A DNA stretch of 64,000 nt. Origin: an uncultured Gammaproteobacteria bacterium. Its GTDB lineage: Bacteria > Patescibacteriota > Microgenomatia > Daviesbacterales > UBA10151. The translations under genes and the position numbers were made by a program. Shown piece by piece: positions 27,369-56,265 of the stretch. The notes beneath the pieces were generated by a model, which did no database searches, was not told where the DNA came from, and worked only from the letters and a program-made list of their open reading frames with translations. The stretch spans positions 120,107 to 184,106 of the forward strand of contig CAYMZD010000001.1 in the NCBI GenBank assembly GCA_964394855.1. Reading direction: 5' to 3'. Within the stretch, counting starts at the first letter, position 1. Each line of letters starts with the position of its first letter.

Positions 27369-30300
27369 TTATGGAGCATCCCAGAAGGTAATATCTGCAA
27401 AAGATTGAGAAGTCTTTGGGGTAGCTTTACCCGGGACAGGAAGCGGAGGACTAATAATGATGGTGTCTCCGCTATTATTATAAACATCCAGCAAGCCTGT
27501 ATAAAGTTGCATCCCGTTTATATTCTCTAAATTATAAGCAATATCTGCTGCAGTGATATTCGATTGAACAGTAGAGGAACACCCAAAGGCCACACAATTT
27601 AATTTAGCTGTTACTAATTGCTGCAGCAGCACCATTCTGGCTTTATCAACTTCACCCCGTTGAGCGAGTTTTCCTTTGCCAGTTGATTTCATGGAAATAT
27701 TTGAGTAGTAAGCACCAAAGAGTTGGCTTTGTTTAGGAACCTGGAAATTTGTAATTGACCCTTTATGAGGAGCAGTGCCGATTAGCATGCCACCAGAGAA
27801 GTGGGTTGCAAAAACTGTAGATGTAAAACTGGTATGAGTCTGCCAAAAACCCTGGGTTCTGGTGGGACCGGGCTTGAAGTTATTGAACGTGCAGGTTACT
27901 TCTGCAGCCGGATCAAGAGAAATAATAACACTTGTACCATTCACCACTATATTTGTGTATGGTGATCGGTCACTATCATTGATACAATTTATTCCTTGAA
28001 ACTGCCAAAATGCAGGTAAAGTCTCCCCGGCAGTATAAACCGCGTTTGCAGAAAGATTTTCAAAGGTCTTTGCTTGCGGGTAATTAGTTCCCGTCGGATC
28101 TTGAACCCCGGCATCATCATCTAGGAAAAAATTATCCTTGCCAGTGAATGAAAATTCAAAATCCTGGGCGTCATTAGGAGTAGCATCTTTAACTATAGTA
28201 ACTTTACCTTGTTTTGTATTAGTAAATGTACAGGTTACTACATCCCCATTATGCAAGGTTATTGAAGCTGGGGTATTGCCTTCCCCATTACACACTCCCC
28301 CATCACTATCCCAGTCAGTAACCGCACCTTCGGAAACACTGTATGTTCCAAGCGCAAGGAAGCCGGAATCATTTTGCTGACCGTCAATTAAGTTAAAGGT
28401 GGCACCACTGTTGTAGCTCGGAGTAAATGTAAAGCTCTGACTACTACCGTCTGGCAATGTTTGCTTGACAACAATTATCTTGCCGGCTACAAAAGTTTTG
28501 GTGGCATCTTCACTGGAACCGTGGGTGCCATCAGTTGCTCGAGCGAGTGAAACACCGCCTACATTAAGAGTAACCGTGGCATGAATCGTAACTGTACCAG
28601 GCGAAGCACTGGTAAAGACGATTATACATTGGCCGCTTACATCTGTATTTGGTCCGGCGTCATCACAAGTGCTGGCAGTATTGTCAAGAACCGATACAGC
28701 TCCACCTGAATCCGCGAGCGTGAAGTCAACGTGCTCACCTGCGGCCGGCGTAGCACCTGTACCGGGATCTTTGGTTACGGTAACTGTTACTGTGTGTGGA
28801 GCGTTGACGTTGTTTTCAGCGGTTAACGGACTCAGCGCGATATTTGCATCAACATAAGTCTTAGTAGCTGGACCGGAATTGTCTCCAACCCCGTTTGTCT
28901 GAAGTTTGAATTCAACGCCGTTAACAACAACTGTCGAACGGGCGGTGATCGTAAAGACTCCAGCAACACTTGAATTTATCGTTACCGTGCACTGACCGCT
29001 TGCGTTTACACCATCATTACAATCCGAAACGTCAAGACTTGTTGATGGACTAACAATCGCATTTGCAAGTGTACCTTCAGGAACCGGAACGAATCCTGAA
29101 CCAGTGTTTTGTTCAACTGTCACGATGAAATCGTGTGAATTTCCGACTTCGTTGGTTGAAGTATTGGGAGTAATACTAATCCGAGCATTTACATAGTCTT
29201 TTTGTGCATCGGCGCTATTGTCTCCGCCTGTTCCAGTTGAAACATTTAGAGTAACACCAAGCACAGTTGGACTGGCTGAAGCGTTAACAACTACATGACC
29301 CGGAGTTGGGGAATTGATAGTTATCGAACAAGCACCACCGGTAGTAGTACAGGTATTAGGACTTGCGGGAACAAATACTGCTGTCGCGCCATTTGAATTA
29401 GTAATTGAGAAAGTAATAGTTGTACCATCAGCAGCTGGTCCCCATACACCATCGCCATTTTGAACCTGAACATTTGCCGAGATTACGTGATCATCTCCAA
29501 TTTTGTTTGCATCCGTAAGAGGAGTAAGGTCAATCTGTGCTGCCGGCTTATTGTTTGTGAAGGTACACGTGACATCTTCGCCTGCTGCAATGTTAAAGGT
29601 TGCGATTCCTGTCTTAATATCTCCCGTACTGTCACCATCGTTACATGTAATATTCGTTAATGCCCAACCGCTAAGCACGGCTTCCGTTGAGCTATACACG
29701 CCTGGGACTACTTCTTCGGTTGCAGTGTCGCCGTCGCCTAATGTTCCTGCAACATTACCCGTAAATATGAACTCCGCTGGATCTCCGTCAGGAATTGTTT
29801 GTTTCTCAATTGTTATGTGACCCTTTCTTGTATTCGTGATTGTGCAAGTCTTGTCATCTCCGGCAGCAAGTGTAATAGTACCAGCGGTAGCTGTACCTCC
29901 ACAGCCTACTCCACTAACAACACTCGTATAATCACTTAAGTTTGTTCCCGTTCCAGCTGCTTCTGCAAAAGTATTGGAACCAATGTTGGCAAACTGAGCG
30001 TTAGTTGTCCCTCCATTGCTAACATCTGTAACATATTGGGTGCCGTTAATTGAGAGGTTGAATTTGCCGGTATCATTTGTGGGATCGGTTACTTTAACAA
30101 CTGTTAATTTTGGCTTCTTGGTGTTAGTAAAAGTACAGGTAGTGGTTTGTCCGGCTACTACGGTCACACCCGTTACCCCATTTGTTCCGGCAGTAAATGC
30201 CTTATCACAAGAGGCAGAACCAAAATTCCAGCCAGAAGGAACAGTTTCCGTAATAGCATAGTTTGTACCTGAATTAACTGGGGTAGGACCGCTTGAGCCA

Positions 30301-31982
30301 GTACCTCCGGAGGTGGTAATGCTGGGAGTCAAAGGTGTGGGACCGGTAACACTATAATTAAATGTCATATCCCCACCAGTGGTATTTTTTACGATTACCA
30401 AATTCCCCTGCTGAAGGGTATTAATAAAGGTACAAGTTACATTTTCCCCCTCTTTTAAATTAATTGTCGCGGTTGATCCGCTAACTGATTGTGTGCCACC
30501 ATTAGGACTAGTGACAGAACATGAGGCCGAATCAAATCCCCAACCAGTAGGAACTGGTGTTTCATTAACAGAGTATGTCTGGAAATCTACGATATTAGAA
30601 AACACCCTTGTGTTTGCTGATGTGCCATCATCAACAAGCGAGAAATTTGTTAAAGGTGAAGGAGATGCTGTAAATAGAAAAGAAGTTGATCCGTTTGGTG
30701 TCGCGTCTTTGATAATTGTTATTGATCCGGGAAAAATAACTGCGGCTGCGGAAAGTGATCTGTCCTGATTGCCGCCACTTCCGTCAAGATCAATAAGTCT
30801 GGTATGGTACGGAGATCCCGAAATATTCACTGCTGAATTATCCAATCCCCAATCAGCTCTAGTAGAAATATGCCCACCCCAAGCCAGCACCGGATTAGCA
30901 ACACTGGCAGTAAATGTAATTGTAATTCTTGCTGATTTATCACCGGTAAAACCCGTACCATCTGCGTATGAATAGGGGCTAACAGCAGTAATGGTTCCAC
31001 CATAAAGTGTGAAATTACCGGCAATTGGAGTTACTCCGGCTCCGGTCACTTGCGGATCCGCCGGTATAGGATCAGTGTTTAGACTACCACATCCACTAAC
31101 CCCTAAACATGGATTAGCTGTTGCTACCGTTTGATTAAAAGTTGTCAGATAATCAATTGCATGTTTACTGCTTTTAGTTGTATCCCATTCTATGGTGACT
31201 GTATGTGAAGCAAGACTTAAGTTGTCAAATGTTAATCTGTAAGGAATTGAATCACCTTCAAAGTACGAAGATTTACTTGCGCCAAGATTTCCGTTTACCC
31301 AATCGCTGGCACTGGCACTGCAACCATCGGTACTTGGAGATGGAGCCGGATCATTTGCACATTGATCCAGCCTAGCAGATGGATTAGCGTCTGTAAATGT
31401 TGTTGTTGCAACAATATTGCCTGAAGAATCCTTGAGTTCTACTTCATAGTTGGGTCTGTAAGTTCCATCTAACTGATAAGCATAAACAAATTCTCCTTTT
31501 TCGTTTGTTGTCACTTGGGTGCTAAACTCAAGTGCCGGGGGGCCGTCTGAAGTAATCACAAGAGTGTAAGTGGTATTTACTTTCAAACCTGTTCCGGAGA
31601 TAACTACCGTATCTGTTGGGGCATAGTCTGCTTTATCTGTAATCAAAGAAGCAGAGCTTGTTACATCAACCGGATCTAAATCAAGGCTGGTAACAGAGCT
31701 GGCTGAGGTATCCGATAAAACAACTGCTGTTAACTGCCCTTCGGCAGTGGGTGATGGGGATGGTGAAACTTCTGGAGTTGCGGTTGGTCCCGATTCAATC
31801 GGGGTTGGGGTAGGAGTCTCAGAGGGTGTAGGAGAAGGTGAAGGTTCAGAAGAAGGACTAATGGTTGGTTCTGCTGTAGACGTGGCTTCCTGGGCATAGG
31901 CCAAAGGACCAAGAGTATTAAAAACTAAAAGAAGAGAGGTAATGAAAGAAAAAAATTTACGAGAAATGCTTCTTCTATTCAT
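27369..31982 (-). CDS. giant (1537 aa) cell-surface protein: signal peptide, Pro/Thr/Ser-rich linker, at least 6 tandem Ig-like (DUF11/'conserved repeat domain'-type) modules, and a distinct 260-aa C-terminal domain
   Basis: N-terminal 'LLVFNTLGPLAYAQEA', 'PSPSPTPSETPTPTP', and recurring module ends 'VTCTFINT', 'TTCTFTNTKKPK', 'KTCTITNTRKG', 'VTCTFTNNKPAA', 'VTCTFTNTKQGK', 'VTCTFNNFKPG'. Confidence 0.75.
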   Translation of the reverse strand: MNRRSISRKFFSFITSLLLVFNTLGPLAYAQEATSTAEPTISPSSEPSPSPTPSETPTPTPIESGPTATPEVSPSPSPTAEGQLTAVVLSDTSASSVTSLDLDPVDVTSSASLITDKADYAPTDTVVISGTGLKVNTTYTLVITSDGPPALEFSTQVTTNEKGEFVYAYQLDGTYRPNYEVELKDSSGNIVATTTFTDANPSARLDQCANDPAPSPSTDGCSASASDWVNGNLGASKSSYFEGDSIPYRLTFDNLSLASHTVTIEWDTTKSSKHAIDYLTTFNQTVATANPCLGVSGCGSLNTDPIPADPQVTGAGVTPIAGNFTLYGGTITAVSPYSYADGTGFTGDKSARITITFTASVANPVLAWGGHISTRADWGLDNSAVNISGSPYHTRLIDLDGSGGNQDRSLSAAAVIFPGSITIIKDATPNGSTSFLFTASPSPLTNFSLVDDGTSANTRVFSNIVDFQTYSVNETPVPTGWGFDSASCSVTSPNGGTQSVSGSTATINLKEGENVTCTFINTLQQGNLVIVKNTTGGDMTFNYSVTGPTPLTPSITTSGGTGSSGPTPVNSGTNYAITETVPSGWNFGSASCDKAFTAGTNGVTGVTVVAGQTTTCTFTNTKKPKLTVVKVTDPTNDTGKFNLSINGTQYVTDVSNGGTTNAQFANIGSNTFAEAAGTGTNLSDYTSVVSGVGCGGTATAGTITLAAGDDKTCTITNTRKGHITIEKQTIPDGDPAEFIFTGNVAGTLGDGDTATEEVVPGVYSSTEAVLSGWALTNITCNDGDSTGDIKTGIATFNIAAGEDVTCTFTNNKPAAQIDLTPLTDANKIGDDHVISANVQVQNGDGVWGPAADGTTITFSITNSNGATAVFVPASPNTCTTTGGACSITINSPTPGHVVVNASASPTVLGVTLNVSTGTGGDNSADAQKDYVNARISITPNTSTNEVGNSHDFIVTVEQNTGSGFVPVPEGTLANAIVSPSTSLDVSDCNDGVNASGQCTVTINSSVAGVFTITARSTVVVNGVEFKLQTNGVGDNSGPATKTYVDANIALSPLTAENNVNAPHTVTVTVTKDPGTGATPAAGEHVDFTLADSGGAVSVLDNTASTCDDAGPNTDVSGQCIIVFTSASPGTVTIHATVTLNVGGVSLARATDGTHGSSEDATKTFVAGKIIVVKQTLPDGSSQSFTFTPSYNSGATFNLIDGQQNDSGFLALGTYSVSEGAVTDWDSDGGVCNGEGNTPASITLHNGDVVTCTFTNTKQGKVTIVKDATPNDAQDFEFSFTGKDNFFLDDDAGVQDPTGTNYPQAKTFENLSANAVYTAGETLPAFWQFQGINCINDSDRSPYTNIVVNGTSVIISLDPAAEVTCTFNNFKPGPTRTQGFWQTHTSFTSTVFATHFSGGMLIGTAPHKGSITNFQVPKQSQLFGAYYSNISMKSTGKGKLAQRGEVDKARMVLLQQLVTAKLNCVAFGCSSTVQSNITAADIAYNLENINGMQLYTGLLDVYNNSGDTIIISPPLPVPGKATPKTSQSFADITFWDAP

Positions 31983-50233: not shown

Positions 50234-50683
50234 TTACCCTCCCAAGGCGATTCTTTCAAATCTTCCTATTTGAATATTTTCTCCCAGTTTTGCCACCACA
50301 GATTTTATCAAATTTTCCACACTCATTCCTTGATCCCTGATGTATTCTTGTTCCAGTAACTCTTCTACTGAAGATGGGTTCATGGAGGCCACTTGCAGGG
50401 AAATTTCATGAGCCAAATTTTTAAATTCTGCTGTTTTGGCCACAAAATCGGTTTCACAAAGAAGTTCTACCAAAACCCCTACTTTACCGCCATGGGAATA
50501 AACCTCTACTAACCCTGCCTTGACTTCCCTCTCGCTTTTTAAAGATGCCTTATCCAATCCTTTTTTCTTTAAAATTTCTTTAGCTTTTTCCATATCACCC
50601 TTTGCCTCTTCTAGAGCTGCCCTGCAATCGGCAATACCTGCCCCCGAATCTTGCCTTAGTTTCTTAATGTCTAGTAAGCTCAT
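50234..50683 (-). CDS. tsf: elongation factor Ts (short form)
   Basis: UBA-like N-terminus 'IKKLRQDSGAGIADCRAALEEAKGDMEKAKEILKKKG'. Confidence 0.8.
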   Translation of the reverse strand: MSLLDIKKLRQDSGAGIADCRAALEEAKGDMEKAKEILKKKGLDKASLKSEREVKAGLVEVYSHGGKVGVLVELLCETDFVAKTAEFKNLAHEISLQVASMNPSSVEELLEQEYIRDQGMSVENLIKSVVAKLGENIQIGRFERIALGG

Positions 50684-51624: not shown

Positions 51625-51840
51625 TCAACGCCTGCCATCTCTAGGGAACCTGGGCATGTCTCTTTTGATAATATGGGCCTGTTCAACTGTTAATGGTAAT
51701 GGTACTACCACCAATCTTCTGGGTGAATAAACCATTGTATCTGGTAATCTTCCAGCTAACCGATTGACTCCTTTCCAGAACTTACTTCTTTCTTTATGCC
51801 CACCCTTATTACTGTAATGATCTCTTAATGTTTCTGTCAT
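51625..51840 (-). CDS. hypothetical small basic protein (doubtful)
   Basis: No SD. Overlaps a likely terminator hairpin of the upstream gene. Confidence 0.2.
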   Translation of the reverse strand: MTETLRDHYSNKGGHKERSKFWKGVNRLAGRLPDTMVYSPRRLVVVPLPLTVEQAHIIKRDMPRFPRDGRR

Positions 51841-51909: not shown

Positions 51910-53706
51910 TTAGGAAAATCGTTCCTCGATTTCCGCTAATTTTCTCTGTATCCGCTTCATCGCTTCCATTCTTTCTAAGTTTTGACGCCTGTTAGTCATG
52001 TCCACAAACTGTTCACTACCTTGTTGAAGTGAGGCTAGAAATGGATAAATCTTTTGTGCCTGAATGGCCATATCTTGAGCCACAGTCCTATAACTAAAGT
52101 GGCCTTGGGGAATACTACGAAGTTCTGTCACCCAAATCCCCTCCCTTAAATCCATCCCCATATACCAACGCATATAATTAGCTAGGGTTGTTAAATATTG
52201 GGCTTCTTCGGAAAAATCTGGAGCCACCATATTATAAGCATACCCCATTTTTCCCATAGTTTCTGCAAATTCTCTTTCCAGCTTAATTGCCTCAAATTCA
52301 ACCGGCATATCATATCCAAACTCTGTGGTGTAGGCTTGTCTTTGTTGAGTAAGCATTCGCTGACGCTGCAAGTCTCGATAAATTCCAAAGTTTCCTAAAA
52401 TATCAAATACCAGCTCATATCCGGAGATTTCAAAGGCGCGGGGTGGTTTGTGACGACGATTAGTGCGCAGTCTTAAACTATCATGCAAGATATCTCCCAC
52501 TATACTTGGATCTGCCCCCCTCAATATATCAATTAATTGCCTTAAGGGTAAACGTGCATACGGATAAAGTAATCCTGCTGCAATATTAATTTCTGGATTT
52601 GGATCCATTTTGACTAATTCAACCCTGCTCGACTCATCCGGTTTTATCCCAGTTAAAAGTTCTTTTGCTCTTCGCTGCAGTGCAGCTTCAGTTTGCCTTA
52701 AATAGGTTTGATAAGCTTCACCTTTATCATTATCAATCACCTCAAAAAATTCTGGTAAAACTTTTTTTAACTGTACAGTTGCCCCACTAGCAATCATCTG
52801 CATTTCAGCCAATGGATGAGCCATCATCTTGGTCATTAAATAACCAAAGGCCCTGGCATTACCTGATTCTCCAATATTCGTCAGGGTGGAGGCTGGCAAA
52901 AGAACCCTTGCCACATCACAAGCTTTGGCACGAATTGATTGCCTATAAGCTGTTCTTGCAGCCCTAATTGAACGTTCATCCTTTAGATCTCCAAAAGGAA
53001 TTTGTGGTTTTTCTTCCAAATCCGATGATAAATCTGAAAATGATTGTGACTCAATAGGTATTTGCTTCTGGAAATAATTCTGCAGGGCGGCAAAACTTCT
53101 AGCGTACACTTCAAAACAAGCTCTGGAAGATTCAAGGTAAAGTTCTCTGTAGTCTGAATCCATTATCCTGGGATCTTTAAAAAAAGCATAATCTCCATCA
53201 GGACCTTTTTGGTCAAAAGCTACAAACCTGGTTGATTTCTCAATTGGCGAAATACCTATTCTAGCATCTTCAATTACTTTAGCTGCGGGTTGAGAAACTC
53301 TATTTAGAAACAGTTTTACTCCACCCATTTCATAAACCGAATCATCCCCGTATTGATTAAGCACTCTCTCTGCCATACTCCTTGCTCTACGATAGTCGAA
53401 TATCACTCTTAAAGCTTCCATTCCTCCATCAATGACCTCCCAGGGAATATCTTTTTTATGAGCCACAAATTCCCGCCAGATCAGTTGCCGGGCAGATAAA
53501 TCTGTTCTTGAATATCTTGCTATAATTAAGGCTGCATAAAGTTCTGGTACATATGGAGTAAACGCATAAAAAGGTCCGTCTGGATCAGTCACAAAATGCT
53601 CAATAGCTACTCTGGCAGCAGTTTCTTCCTCTGGATCTCCGGAAAAACTTAATTGTTCTTTGATTGGAGGATTATAAAATTTGGCTCTTTCTACGAGTTC
53701 GTTCAT
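51910..53706 (-). CDS. ThyX-like flavin-dependent thymidylate synthase, atypically long (about 598 aa from the Met right after the tmk stop)
   Basis: 'RRHKPPRAFEISGYE' resembles the ThyX RHRx7S signature (T. maritima 'RHRIASYNELSGRY'). 'IARYSRTDLSARQ' resembles the first ThyX motif. Sits directly downstream of tmk and dcd. Confidence 0.4.
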   Translation of the reverse strand: MNELVERAKFYNPPIKEQLSFSGDPEEETAARVAIEHFVTDPDGPFYAFTPYVPELYAALIIARYSRTDLSARQLIWREFVAHKKDIPWEVIDGGMEALRVIFDYRRARSMAERVLNQYGDDSVYEMGGVKLFLNRVSQPAAKVIEDARIGISPIEKSTRFVAFDQKGPDGDYAFFKDPRIMDSDYRELYLESSRACFEVYARSFAALQNYFQKQIPIESQSFSDLSSDLEEKPQIPFGDLKDERSIRAARTAYRQSIRAKACDVARVLLPASTLTNIGESGNARAFGYLMTKMMAHPLAEMQMIASGATVQLKKVLPEFFEVIDNDKGEAYQTYLRQTEAALQRRAKELLTGIKPDESSRVELVKMDPNPEINIAAGLLYPYARLPLRQLIDILRGADPSIVGDILHDSLRLRTNRRHKPPRAFEISGYELVFDILGNFGIYRDLQRQRMLTQQRQAYTTEFGYDMPVEFEAIKLEREFAETMGKMGYAYNMVAPDFSEEAQYLTTLANYMRWYMGMDLREGIWVTELRSIPQGHFSYRTVAQDMAIQAQKIYPFLASLQQGSEQFVDMTNRRQNLERMEAMKRIQRKLAEIEERFS

Positions 53707-53708
53707 TT

Positions 53709-54365
53709 TTATTCTTTTCCCTTTAAAATAAGGTTGGGCTTTATCAAGGTAACAATTTTTTGATGTATTTCTTCCGGTGTTAAAGTTCCATCCAATAAAG
53801 CTACTGTCCAAGCATGATCCTCTTTATATTTTAAATATCCCTCTCTGACCTTTATGGCAAATTCTAAACCTTGTTCTTCATAAATAAGATCTTGCCCAAC
53901 ATTATCAACATTTCCTCTCCTTCTAAAACTTTCCTCTGCCGGAATATCTAAAATTACCAGCAGATCCAGCCTACAACCACTTAGGGTAACAACTTTCTGG
54001 CCTAAAACTTTCAAGAATTCTGCATCTACACCCTGAACATATCCTTGATAGACCCAAGTTGATGGTTCAAAACGATCAGTTATAACAGTAATTCCCGCTT
54101 CCAAATTTGGTTTAACCACTTGACTAAGAAATTCTTGTCTGGCTGCATAAAAAAGGAGTGCTTGAGTATCCGGACTCATTATTTCCTCTCTTGGTTTTAA
54201 AAGCACTTGCCTAATTTCTTCCCCCACCTCTGTACCACCGGGTTCTCTGGTCTGGATCACTTCGAGGCCCCTACCTTCCAGATATTGAGCCAATAACCCT
54301 GCCTGGGTAGTTTTCCCACAATTGTCAATCCCTTCTAAAACAACGAATAATCCTTTTTCAACCAT
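53709..54365 (-). CDS. tmk: thymidylate kinase
   Basis: P-loop 'FVVLEGIDNCGKTTQ', 'TREPGGT', and the DRF-type 'TDRFEPS' motif. Confidence 0.85.
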   Translation of the reverse strand: MVEKGLFVVLEGIDNCGKTTQAGLLAQYLEGRGLEVIQTREPGGTEVGEEIRQVLLKPREEIMSPDTQALLFYAARQEFLSQVVKPNLEAGITVITDRFEPSTWVYQGYVQGVDAEFLKVLGQKVVTLSGCRLDLLVILDIPAEESFRRRGNVDNVGQDLIYEEQGLEFAIKVREGYLKYKEDHAWTVALLDGTLTPEEIHQKIVTLIKPNLILKGKE

Positions 54366-55194
54366 TTAAGAACTCCTTTATAAAAACTTCTGTCCAAGAC
54401 TCAACTGAAATCATTGGATCTGCCATATACTTTTCCAGTGTTGCTAGTGTATCTTTAAACGGAATCCACCAGACAGTTCTCACCTCTCTTAAAGCAAATC
54501 TTAATTCAGTGATAGAAGAAGGGTCAAGTTCAATCATCACTGGTAGACCAAGATGAACCCAACCTACTTGGACTTTATCAGCAGGATTGGTGACTCTATT
54601 ATCTAAAAAGGCTCCCGAAAGCCTTACTCCTTTAATATCATGGGGCTTAATCCCTAACTCTTCTTCTACTTCTGCGAATAAACCTCTGGATGGTCCTAGC
54701 GCGCGCTCCAAGAATCTTTGTAAACCGGGAACTAGTGGTGAAAGCATCAGCTGTTCTGGTGGAGTTAAATGAATATCTTCTTCTGTTTTATGTCCTCCAA
54801 AACCAATGGAGTATTTTCCCAGCAATCTTTCGTCTCCCAAAAGTTCTGGTGGAATAGTAGCAGTAGTTTGACTACCAGCTCTTTGATACCAAAGCAGTCT
54901 ATCATTAGCTAAAATGGCGGCATAAAAAATGACCTGTTTTTTGGTGGGATCTTCTTCTAAAAAAGAACGCTGTCCCACCTCTCCATAATCTGCAATAGCC
55001 GTTAAAACCGGTGTGACATCTTTTGCCACCAAAATATCTGGTAAAACAGTGGCTGGTTGAAATTGACAGCTTTCCAATCTCTCGGCCGGAACAAAGAGTG
55101 CAGTTCTACTTGATCTAGGCTTATTTTTTCCAGGAGAAATAGGATCTGCTCCATCAGGCAGGGGAATTTTAATTACTCCAAATTCTTGTTCCAT
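54358..55194 (-). CDS. hypothetical protein (degenerate Nudix-like box?)
   Basis: 'GLQRFLE...AEVEEELGI' loosely resembles Gx5Ex7REUxEExGU with a longer spacer and R replaced by A. Sits between dcd and tmk. Confidence 0.3.
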   Translation of the reverse strand: MEQEFGVIKIPLPDGADPISPGKNKPRSSRTALFVPAERLESCQFQPATVLPDILVAKDVTPVLTAIADYGEVGQRSFLEEDPTKKQVIFYAAILANDRLLWYQRAGSQTTATIPPELLGDERLLGKYSIGFGGHKTEEDIHLTPPEQLMLSPLVPGLQRFLERALGPSRGLFAEVEEELGIKPHDIKGVRLSGAFLDNRVTNPADKVQVGWVHLGLPVMIELDPSSITELRFALREVRTVWWIPFKDTLATLEKYMADPMISVESWTEVFIKEFLNG

Positions 55195-55199
55195 TATTC

Positions 55200-55901
55200 T
55201 TATATTTTTTTTAACCTGGGCAACATATTTTCTGGTCCCCAGCTAGCCTTAACTTCTTCCAAGGTTTTTCCTTGTTGATAACTTCCCTTGACATAATATT
55301 GAGTTGTTTCCTCTGGTGAGACCGCAAAAAAAACGATCTGGGCAATGGGCTGACCCACACAAAGTACTATCCATTCTTGGGAAAGTTTATTATGTATCTC
55401 CATTGTCCAGCGGTTAATAAAACCCACATCACCCCAACCGGCATCACCACACACAGATAAAAATACCCTTCCCCAAGTAGACCGGGCTTGCATGGTGGTA
55501 GTAATTAAATCTTTTCCCCCAATAAATTCTTCAGTATGAGCCAGTATGGTCTCATTTGGTCTAAGTATAATAACCCGATCATCTAAATCAAGCCCATTAA
55601 AATCTTTCTCCACCGCATAATCTTTAAATGGGCCCTCTTCTAGGTGCCACCTAATTGTACTTGCTCGCCATGGTCCATTCCAAAGCTTACGAATATGGTC
55701 TGGGTTAAATGGATTAATTAGGCGGATTCCAGGATGTTCTGCTGGTGTAACCCAGAAATGTTCACCCAGGCCAACATCATAGCTTGAGGTTTGCACTCTT
55801 TCTTGCCTAAAAGGATCAATCACCACCAGTCCAGCCTCTCTGGCCCTTCTAATTCCTTCACCCGATAGAACTGAATGTGGAAATCCCGAAACTGTTTCCA
55901 T
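55200..55901 (-). CDS. dcd: dCTP deaminase / dUTPase-superfamily protein
   Basis: 'GLVVIDPFRQERVQTSSYDVGLGEHF' matches the Dcd N-terminus. 'ARSTWGRVFL', 'GDAGWGD' and 'TMEIHN' match Dcd catalytic segments. Confidence 0.7.
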   Translation of the reverse strand: METVSGFPHSVLSGEGIRRAREAGLVVIDPFRQERVQTSSYDVGLGEHFWVTPAEHPGIRLINPFNPDHIRKLWNGPWRASTIRWHLEEGPFKDYAVEKDFNGLDLDDRVIILRPNETILAHTEEFIGGKDLITTTMQARSTWGRVFLSVCGDAGWGDVGFINRWTMEIHNKLSQEWIVLCVGQPIAQIVFFAVSPEETTQYYVKGSYQQGKTLEEVKASWGPENMLPRLKKI

Positions 55902-55950: not shown

Positions 55951-56265
55951 TTATCTGGCAGAAACTTCCCTGTAGGCTACAGAGTTAGCATAAGTTCTTA
56001 AATCAAAATCCGCCCCTCCAACTAACTTGGTCAATCTTTCCAAATCTGCACCTGAAATTTGTCCCTTCTGGTGGAGCGCTTTAATCTCTGTTATAGTATC
56101 ATGAACCCTTGTTGCCAAATTTCCCACCGTCTCAATTGCTAACATTTCTTCTCTGGTTAATCTGCGCCTGGATATTTCTAACCCATCACCACTCGGTTCC
56201 TCAATAGGACCCAGTCCATTACAATTAATAACTGACCCTCTTCTTTCTGGGGTTACTGGATTCAT
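55951..56265 (-). CDS. hypothetical protein
   Basis: 104-aa ORF with no motif. Confidence 0.3.
   Translation of the reverse strand: MNPVTPERRGSVINCNGLGPIEEPSGDGLEISRRRLTREEMLAIETVGNLATRVHDTITEIKALHQKGQISGADLERLTKLVGGADFDLRTYANSVAYREVSAR

Follow-up and report, generated by a model that had tools for sequence, protein, structure and literature searches.

The DNA analyzed here is a stretch of 64,000 nucleotides (64 kb) from contig CAYMZD010000001.1, hereafter the window. On its minus strand lie four consecutive genes, which encode a dCTP (deoxycytidine triphosphate) deaminase-like protein (Dcd), a protein of 278 amino acid (aa) residues termed X, a thymidylate kinase (Tmk) and a large protein of 598 aa related to the thymidylate synthase ThyX. 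A preliminary description of this DNA had reported four such genes, and all of them are present in the list of open reading frames (ORFs) with the coordinates of Table 1. The genes of X and Tmk overlap by 8 nucleotides (nt), and gaps of 2 and 5 nt separate the others; this tight spacing indicates that they form one operon. The thyX ORF was listed as 51910–53811 (633 aa), starting from a TTG inside tmk, and an ATG at 53706, 2 bases past the tmk stop, yields 598 aa. The latter length was taken as real; an NCBI entry with the name FAD-dependent thymidylate synthase [Candidatus Daviesbacteria bacterium] matches the 598-aa product with 100% identity (FAD, flavin adenine dinucleotide). The four genes very probably represent a chromosomal operon for synthesis of deoxythymidine monophosphate (dTMP), with a two-domain ThyX and X, in a Candidatus Daviesbacteria genome of the Candidate Phyla Radiation (CPR). 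The main result is a correction: by alignment, what appeared to be a variant catalytic signature of the large protein is a chance match, and the protein belongs to a large and already annotated family.

The large protein matched the Pfam family Thy1 (PF02511) in two stretches with 96.7 bits against a cutoff of 24.8. Scanned singly, both halves also exceeded this cutoff, with 43.8 bits for residues 107–289 and 47.6 bits for residues 418–555. In hhalign comparisons, the N-terminal (N) half aligned with canonical ThyX at a probability of 96.2% (E=2.4e-9) and the C-terminal (C) half at 97.4% (E=1.2e-11), and the C half aligned with ThyX of Thermotoga maritima at 95.1%. The alignment of the two halves with each other was weak (E=2.9e-4). 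The profiles of the halves were built from 237 relatives, from which all conservation percentages given below were also calculated. A single-sequence search of the Protein Data Bank (PDB) was barely significant (E=0.38), and a profile search was needed. An AlphaFold2 model built on 80 homologues had a predicted local distance difference test score (pLDDT) of 91.7 and a predicted template modeling score (pTM) of 0.91. At E<=1e-3, its Foldseek matches in the PDB were ThyX chains only, that of Mycobacterium tuberculosis first; each covered about 217 columns, which equal one half, with template modeling (TM) scores of about 0.6 to the target. No PDB structure that spans both Thy1 halves was found among these matches. 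Thus, the suggestion that this might be a duplicated-domain ThyX is borne out, as each half matches Thy1 alone, each aligns with canonical ThyX and the model retrieves ThyX only. The large protein is predicted to be a tandem-duplicated flavin-dependent thymidylate synthase and an ordinary member of a known, already annotated family.

This family is large. A HMMER search of 1.84 billion cluster representatives returned 2485 matches at E<=1e-3, of which 367 reached E<=1e-30, and most of the best 150 were about 500–620 aa long. With one genome per species, at least 580 loci were found in Daviesbacteria, CPR3, DPANN archaea (Woese-, Micr-, Aenigmat-, Iain- and Nanoarchaeota), Binatia, Deltaproteobacteria, SAR324, Chloroflexia, Omnitrophota, Nitrospirae and Chlamydiae/Parachlamydiales. 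Across 80 genome loci, including those of Chlamydiae, Parachlamydiales and Chloroflexia, the homology was collinear over the full length, with identities of 34–59% and mostly more than 90% query cover. A search seeded with a Parachlamydiales sequence returned thousands of proteins of 540–550 aa, many of which are named ThyX. ThyX of environmental Chlamydiae, also 540–550 aa long, carries every motif of the family; ThyX of Chlamydia trachomatis itself is about 529 aa long. The only description of a two-domain ThyX architecture found in the literature was that of Valas and Bourne (2009), who noted a domain duplication, then uncharacterized, in ThyX of Chloroflexi (PMC3224940).

Table 1. Features of the operon and its surroundings (positions in the window)
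Feature	Position	Strand	Residues	Remarks
dcd-like gene	55200–55901	minus	233 aa	PF22769, 2.5e-27
Protein X gene	54358–55194	minus	278 aa	predicted Nudix fold, without family match
Split Nudix box of X	54649–54798	minus	133–182	GGHKTEED ... AEVEEELGI (family alignment)
tmk, thymidylate kinase	53709–54365	minus	218 aa	PF02223, 1.2e-38; TIGR00041, 149.2 bits (cutoff 83.25)
Two-domain thyX gene	51910–53706	minus	598 aa	PF02511 (Thy1), two stretches
N-terminal Thy1 domain	52732–53619	minus	about 30–325	putative substrate-loop donor
C-terminal Thy1 domain	52027–52629	minus	about 360–560	putative donor of arginines and flavin residues
IARYSRTDLSARQ	53485–53523	minus	62–74	RYSR motif; translation checked
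EDARIGISPIEKSTRF	53224–53271	minus	146–161	N-half ThyX motif counterpart; aligned to ELVRHRLM-AISQESTRY of a canonical CPR ThyX; translation checked
RRHKPPRAFEISGYE	52414–52458	minus	417–431	counterpart of ThyX KHGHETPFEH (HMMER, hhalign to 1kq4 and 4gtf)
RDLQRQRMLTQQRQ	52336–52377	minus	444–457	C-half ThyX motif counterpart; translation checked
104-aa ORF	55951–56265	minus	104 aa	between topA and dcd
71-aa ORF	51625–51840	minus	71 aa	between thyX and rpsB
tsf (EF-Ts)	50234–50683	minus	149 aa	about half as long as is usual in bacteria
Large ORF	27369–31982	minus	1537 aa	four SpaA_4 prealbumin-like fold repeats (PF24514, 5.7e-39)

Motifs and ligands of the two-domain ThyX

Two peptides had been quoted in the preliminary description, RRHKPPRAFEISGYE and IARYSRTDLSARQ, and both are present in the checked translation. 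The former had been regarded as an RHK variant of the ThyX signature RHRx7S. In the HMMER and hhalign profile alignments, RRHKPPRAFE (residues 417–426) aligns with KHGHETPFEH of T. maritima ThyX (K50–H59), which is the conserved GHxxPxEH region and a position not homologous to the signature. Moreover, S428, the serine that completes RHKx7S, was not conserved among the relatives (A 41%, T 13%, V 12% and G 8%), and the pattern RH[RK]x7S occurred in 11 of the 237. Because the alignments place the peptide at K50–H59 and S428 is unconserved, the proposed signature was rejected; judged from the profiles, it is a coincidental match.

The counterparts of the ThyX motif were found elsewhere in both halves. 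In the N half it is EDARIGISPIEKSTRF, in which the first Arg and the His of the motif are replaced by D147 and A148; the conserved residues are R149 (99%), E156 (98%), S158 (100%), R160 (100%) and Y/F161 (99%). The counterpart in the C half, RDLQRQRMLTQQRQ, aligns with ARQWFRHRIASYNE[LSGRY]S of T. maritima ThyX, of which the bracketed five residues are deleted. Here R444 (96%), D445 (100%), R448 (100%) and R450 (98%) are conserved, and at position 449 the relatives have H (73%) or Q (22%) in most cases. Only the two halves together provide a complete RHRx7S. In addition, the RYSR motif within IARYSRTDLSARQ is conserved in the family (R64 97%, Y65 91%, S66 99% and R67 99%). IARYSRT (residues 62–68) precedes the GDDS (GHxS) motif by about 55 residues and, by position, would correspond to the N-terminal AARVSF motif of T. 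maritima ThyX.

Table 2. Residues of the two halves at the positions of known T. maritima (Tm) ThyX ligands (percentages, share of the relatives)
Tm residue	N half	C half
H53	D121 (D 97%)	P421 (P 82%)
E58	E126 (E 73%, Q 21%)	E426 (100%)
R74	K143 (K 93%)	R444 (96%)
R78	D147 (D 67%)	R448 (100%)
H79	A148, variable	Q449 in the window (H 73%, Q 22%)
R80	R149 (99%)	R450 (98%)
E86	E156 (98%)	deleted
S88	S158 (100%)	deleted
R90	R160 (100%)	deleted
Y91	F161 in the window (Y 98%)	deleted
R147	R267 (100%)	Q503 (Q 86%)
N163	N283 (77%)	D519 in the window (N 92%)
R165	R285 (75%)	R521 (98%)
R174	K293 (K 69%, R 18%)	R530 (99%)
H178	P298, not conserved	H536 (97%)

Mapping of the known ligands of the T. maritima enzyme onto both halves (Table 2) revealed that the catalytic residues are split between the two Thy1 domains throughout the family. 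For deoxyuridine monophosphate (dUMP), the ligands (R74, R78, S88, R90, R147 and R174) are complete and 92–100% conserved when the halves are taken together. The flavin ligands (E58, R78-H79-R80, N163, R165 and H178) are also 92–100% conserved across the halves, except H79. Whether the FAD and dUMP ligands reside in one or both halves had been raised as a check; the set is complete across both and divided between them.

In ThyX of PBCV-1, the Ser88/Gln89 loop is contributed by one monomer, and Gln75 and the strictly conserved Arg182 are contributed by another; Arg182 is, by our own mapping, R174 of T. maritima. By analogy of residues, the N domain would donate the loop (E156, S158, R160 and Y/F161) together with the phosphate-binding arginine R267 (Tm R147). 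The C domain would play the part of the partner subunit, donating the arginines R444, R448, R450 and R530 (Tm R74, R78, R80 and R174) as well as the flavin ligands E426, N/D519, R521 and H536. Given the complementary loss of ligands, a complete dUMP/FAD site would have to combine an N domain with a C domain. As a dimer, the fused chain would then mimic the canonical homotetramer and probably have about two competent composite sites, each made of an N-domain loop and C-domain arginines, compared with four per canonical tetramer. The complementary loss leads to a model, open to testing, of ThyX as a "fossilised heterodimer" in which only half of the usual active sites remain, and the composite-site model may be relevant to the design of inhibitors against chlamydial ThyX.

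In two sister Daviesbacteria, the gene order is topA-pyrG-...-dcd (208 aa)-dut (145–153 aa)-tmk-[nucleoside deoxyribosyltransferase]-thyX (long)-rpsB-tsf-frr-rseP. An archaeal homologue of the long ThyX adjoins the gene for serine hydroxymethyltransferase (SHMT), the enzyme that is the source of methylenetetrahydrofolate. The sister operons and the SHMT neighbor therefore embed the long ThyX in dTMP synthesis. A tblastn search of the 64-kb window for thyA, folA, dut, a short canonical thyX, SHMT, pyrG and nucleoside deoxyribosyltransferase found none of them; thyA, dut and folA had been proposed for checking in the genome, and a canonical thyX or thyA elsewhere had been named as a refuting condition. 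In the proposed pathway, the divergent Dcd would deaminate dCTP to deoxyuridine triphosphate (dUTP), or to dUMP directly if it is bifunctional; the two-domain ThyX would methylate dUMP to dTMP, and Tmk would phosphorylate dTMP to the diphosphate dTDP.

Two other readings of the large protein need to be weighed. According to one, also raised in the preliminary description, the protein is ThyX-like but has a different chemistry, such as methylation of uridine monophosphate (UMP) or another nucleotide (e.g., PolB), or is a non-catalytic paralogue. Several features fit this reading, the first three of which also weigh against a thymidylate synthase. The score for the thyX equivalog TIGR02170 was 44.6 bits, under the cutoff of 87.9; neither half has a complete RHRx7S, as the N half has D-A-R-x8-S-T-R-F and the C half R-Q-R without the S-G-R-Y loop; both halves are without an equivalent of Tm H53 (D121 and P421); and the structural neighbors include PolB-type UMP/dUMP methylases and the atypical ThyX of C. 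glutamicum, which is not needed for dTMP synthesis. However, the dUMP and FAD ligands are all present across the halves (96–100% conserved), and the Foldseek matches to PolB were weaker than those to M. tuberculosis ThyX. The gene shares its operon with dcd and tmk, and its relatives lie beside dcd, dut, tmk, pyrG or SHMT. Moreover, the family includes ThyX of Chlamydiae, which has the same architecture, and the purified C. trachomatis enzyme was active in enzyme assays (PMC3498832). Given this context of dTMP synthesis and the lack of another thymidylate synthase in the window, a different chemistry is highly unlikely.

The other reading accepts a thymidylate synthase in which both halves are catalytic, so that a dimer has four sites and the lost residues reflect divergence compensated by other residues. 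The N half has Lys at the positions of R74 (K143, 93%) and R174 (K293, 69%, plus R in 18%), it retains R80, and about 75% of the members still have N163 and R165 there; a second type of site may therefore not be entirely dead. However, the whole S88-G-R90-Y91 loop is deleted from the C half, in which R147 is changed to Gln in 86% of the members, and in the N half R78 is Asp in 67% of the members and H178 is missing. As these patterns are family-wide, four active sites per dimer are improbable, and a thymidylate synthase with composite sites is preferred.

A swap of the thymidylate synthase type was observed in a related CPR genome (L006, 1020–4519). The rpsB-tsf-frr-rseP neighborhood is kept there, thyA and folA replace tmk and the long thyX, and X and two DCD-family genes lie upstream. 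This is a local exchange within conserved synteny.

Protein X and the dCTP deaminase

X is the least understood gene of the operon. It had no match in Pfam (E<=1, including NUDIX), NCBIfam or PADLOC, and its family has only 12 members. The profile of this family matched PDB entry 3e57 (TM1382, a putative Nudix protein of T. maritima) with E=8.6e-6. The AlphaFold2 model of X had a pLDDT of 75.6, and its top Foldseek match was also 3e57 (E=4.8e-10), followed by isopentenyl diphosphate (IPP) isomerases and Nudix hydrolases. A total of 76 PDB entries matched at E<=1e-3, and all of the 50 listed belong to the Nudix clan. In the family alignment, LWYQR, G133, G134, H135, K136, T137, D140, E175, E178 and E179 are invariant. 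The two parts of the Nudix box are separated by an insertion of about 27 aa (residues 142–171, pLDDT <50). The degenerate Nudix-like box noticed earlier in X is therefore real, as E175, E178 and E179 are invariant and the predicted fold is Nudix. Against this assignment, the canonical spacing of the Nudix box (GX5EX7REUXEEXGU) is absent, the Arg of RE is replaced and Pfam NUDIX gives no match. Judged from its profile and model, X is a Nudix-fold protein of a TM1382-like clade; the function of TM1382 is undetermined (PMC5389931).

X also matched phrog_8902 (function unknown; 7.7e-14), and weak phage homologues are annotated as NUDIX. One of them, in Geobacillus phage GR1 (L092, OK896991.1, 4881–5495), is a NUDIX protein with 32% identity over 60% of X, and its gene lies among those of a dUTP diphosphatase, a thioredoxin and a guanylate kinase.

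The window Dcd scored 76.9 bits with TIGR02274, under the cutoff of 92.8. Its best PDB sequence matches were the dUMP-forming bifunctional enzymes 4xjc of B. halodurans (1.8e-13), 1ogh of M. jannaschii (4.4e-9) and 2qxx of M. tuberculosis; Dcd of E. coli was not among the PDB matches at E<=0.01. The segment RSTWGR...GWGD...TMEI aligns with the catalytic segment of the M. jannaschii enzyme (RSSLGR...TLEI in 1ogh), and the Ser, Arg, Asp and Glu are kept. The identity between the window Dcd (233 aa) and a 231-aa Dcd of another genome (L008, 4711–5406) was 40%, and the identities with CPR Dcd proteins of 191–208 aa ranged from 22 to 30%. The 233- and 231-aa proteins both possess an insertion of about 30–40 aa and a C-terminal extension that ends in a conserved MLP. 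Both loci with this long subtype contain X and have no dut in the cluster. The window Dcd is classified by these alignments as a DCD-family dCTP deaminase of a divergent long subtype.

Similar to its position in the window, dcd (233 aa)-X-tmk-thyX (long), X is found next to nucleotide genes in other genomes. The orders are X-dcd (231 aa)-tmk-thyX (short, 252 aa) in L008, X-dcd (208 aa)-dcd/dut-like (185 aa)-thyA-folA-...-rpsB in L006, topA-X-dcd (194 aa) in L089 and topA-123 aa-X-dut (146 aa)-140 aa-dcd (191 aa)-tmk in L091; in L090 the context is unrelated. Thus, dcd or dut accompanies X in 5 of the 6 contexts, whatever the type of thymidylate synthase. From the fold, the conserved metal-binding glutamates and this linkage, X is most likely tied functionally to dCTP deaminase, as a pyrimidine (deoxy)nucleoside triphosphate pyrophosphohydrolase that would act on dUTP or dCTP. 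The unrelated context of L090 weighs against this assignment, as do L091 and L006, in which X is present alongside a genuine dUTPase and a dUTPase-like protein, respectively.

The preliminary description had gone further and suggested that X supplies the step from dUTP to dUMP. Stated fully, X would be the dUTP pyrophosphatase of the operon: as a Nudix-type, non-orthologous substitute for Dut, it would turn the dUTP from Dcd into dUMP for ThyX. Consistent with this, X sits exactly in the slot between dcd and tmk that is held by dut (145–153 aa) in the two sister Daviesbacteria, and it combines the Nudix fold with three invariant glutamates. The tblastn search did not detect dut in the window, and in L008, where the long Dcd subtype also occurs, the cluster contains X and lacks dut. 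Moreover, NudI, a Nudix protein of E. coli, has dUTP and dCTP diphosphatase activity (PMC5389931), and Thermotoga, the source of TM1382, was reported to be a genus without dut (PMC5122711). However, L091 has a bona fide trimeric dUTPase together with X, and in phage GR1 a dUTPase is encoded three genes upstream of the X-like Nudix gene. The window Dcd is most similar to bifunctional enzymes, and if it forms dUMP, a separate dUTPase would be unnecessary; in addition, the absence of dut applies to 64 kb of the genome only. Of the suggestion, the Nudix fold and the dut slot stand, and the dUTPase role is unproven because of the true dUTPase in L091 and the bifunctional-like Dcd. We therefore regard a replacement of Dut by X as possible but rather unlikely. 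Still more tentative is its extension to the whole TM1382-like clade, which would be an unrecognised group of pyrimidine-deoxynucleotide enzymes, namely dUTP (or dUTP/dCTP) pyrophosphatases able to take the place of Dut in the thymidylate operons of CPR bacteria. If true, the clade might explain the clearance of dUTP in "dut-less" lineages such as Thermotoga.

For X as an enzyme tied to dCTP deaminase, the clade to which it is assigned is small and uncharacterised, is consistently linked to dcd and occupies the dut position here. The linkage of X with dcd provides a biochemical lead for the structural-genomics orphan TM1382 and for the handling of dUTP in reduced genomes.

Genomic surroundings of the operon

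Upstream of the operon lie topA and the 104-aa ORF, and downstream of it rpsB, a short tsf, frr, a gene for an RseP-type protease and proS-like genes. A Pfam scan of 20 large ORFs of the window found housekeeping genes only, including dnaB, dnaX, the trigger factor gene, cysS and more. The composition was even across the window (GC content 0.35–0.46), without an island signal at the locus. A defence-system reading of Dcd together with a Nudix protein was considered and rejected: Dcd, X and the upstream 104-aa ORF had no PADLOC match, and the context is one of housekeeping genes (topA, rpsB, tsf, frr and rseP).

Several other ORFs of the window were observed in passing. The tsf orthologues of two other Daviesbacteria loci (L003 and L004) encode 151 aa, and the short tsf therefore seems typical of the lineage. 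The 1537-aa ORF with SpaA_4 repeats encodes a surface protein of very large size that resembles a pilin or an adhesin, in a CPR bacterium with a small genome. The 104-aa ORF had no match in Pfam, NCBIfam, PADLOC or PHROGs, and small unannotated ORFs of 96–123 aa are found at the equivalent position after topA in L003 and L091. Finally, the 71-aa ORF is a called gene in public assemblies (L001 and L002) without a family match; it may be spurious or encode a small conserved protein.

Comparison with known systems

Similar to the single-domain ThyX proteins (also called FDTS), such as TM0449 of T. maritima, Rv2754c of M. tuberculosis and A674R of PBCV-1, each half of the window protein has the same fold (hhalign 95–97%), and the protein has the same set of substrate and flavin ligands and the same genomic role beside dcd, dut and tmk. 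Different from them, two Thy1 domains are joined in one 598-aa chain and the ligands are divided between the domains; the H53 equivalent is missing, the TIGR02170 score is below cutoff, and the expected assembly would be a dimer that mimics the tetramer. The two-domain ThyX proteins of Chlamydiae and Chloroflexi are 35–39% identical to the window protein over more than 90% of the length, and the motifs RYSR, GDDS, PLEKSTRY, NRRHK and YRDLQRHR are common to them. Compared with these, the members of the Daviesbacteria clade are about 50 aa longer (595–598 vs. about 540 aa), carry Q, not H, at the C-half equivalent of H79, and contain two additional residues after RAFE as well as an extra loop (about residues 215–245).

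The window Dcd shares its catalytic segment with the bifunctional dCTP deaminase:dUTPases (MJ0430 [1ogh], 4xjc and 2qxx), which are its best PDB matches. It differs from them by its length of 233 aa and by the insertion and C-terminal extension, which are common only to the 231-aa Dcd of L008. TM1382 (3e57) is the closest relative of X in sequence and structure, with TM scores of 0.72–0.75 to the target, and the xLWYQR / S-x-G-x-GGH motif region is common to both. X, however, is about 70–100 aa longer than TM1382, owing to an N-terminal extension and the insertion of about 27 aa in the Nudix box, and REUxEE has no conserved Arg in X.

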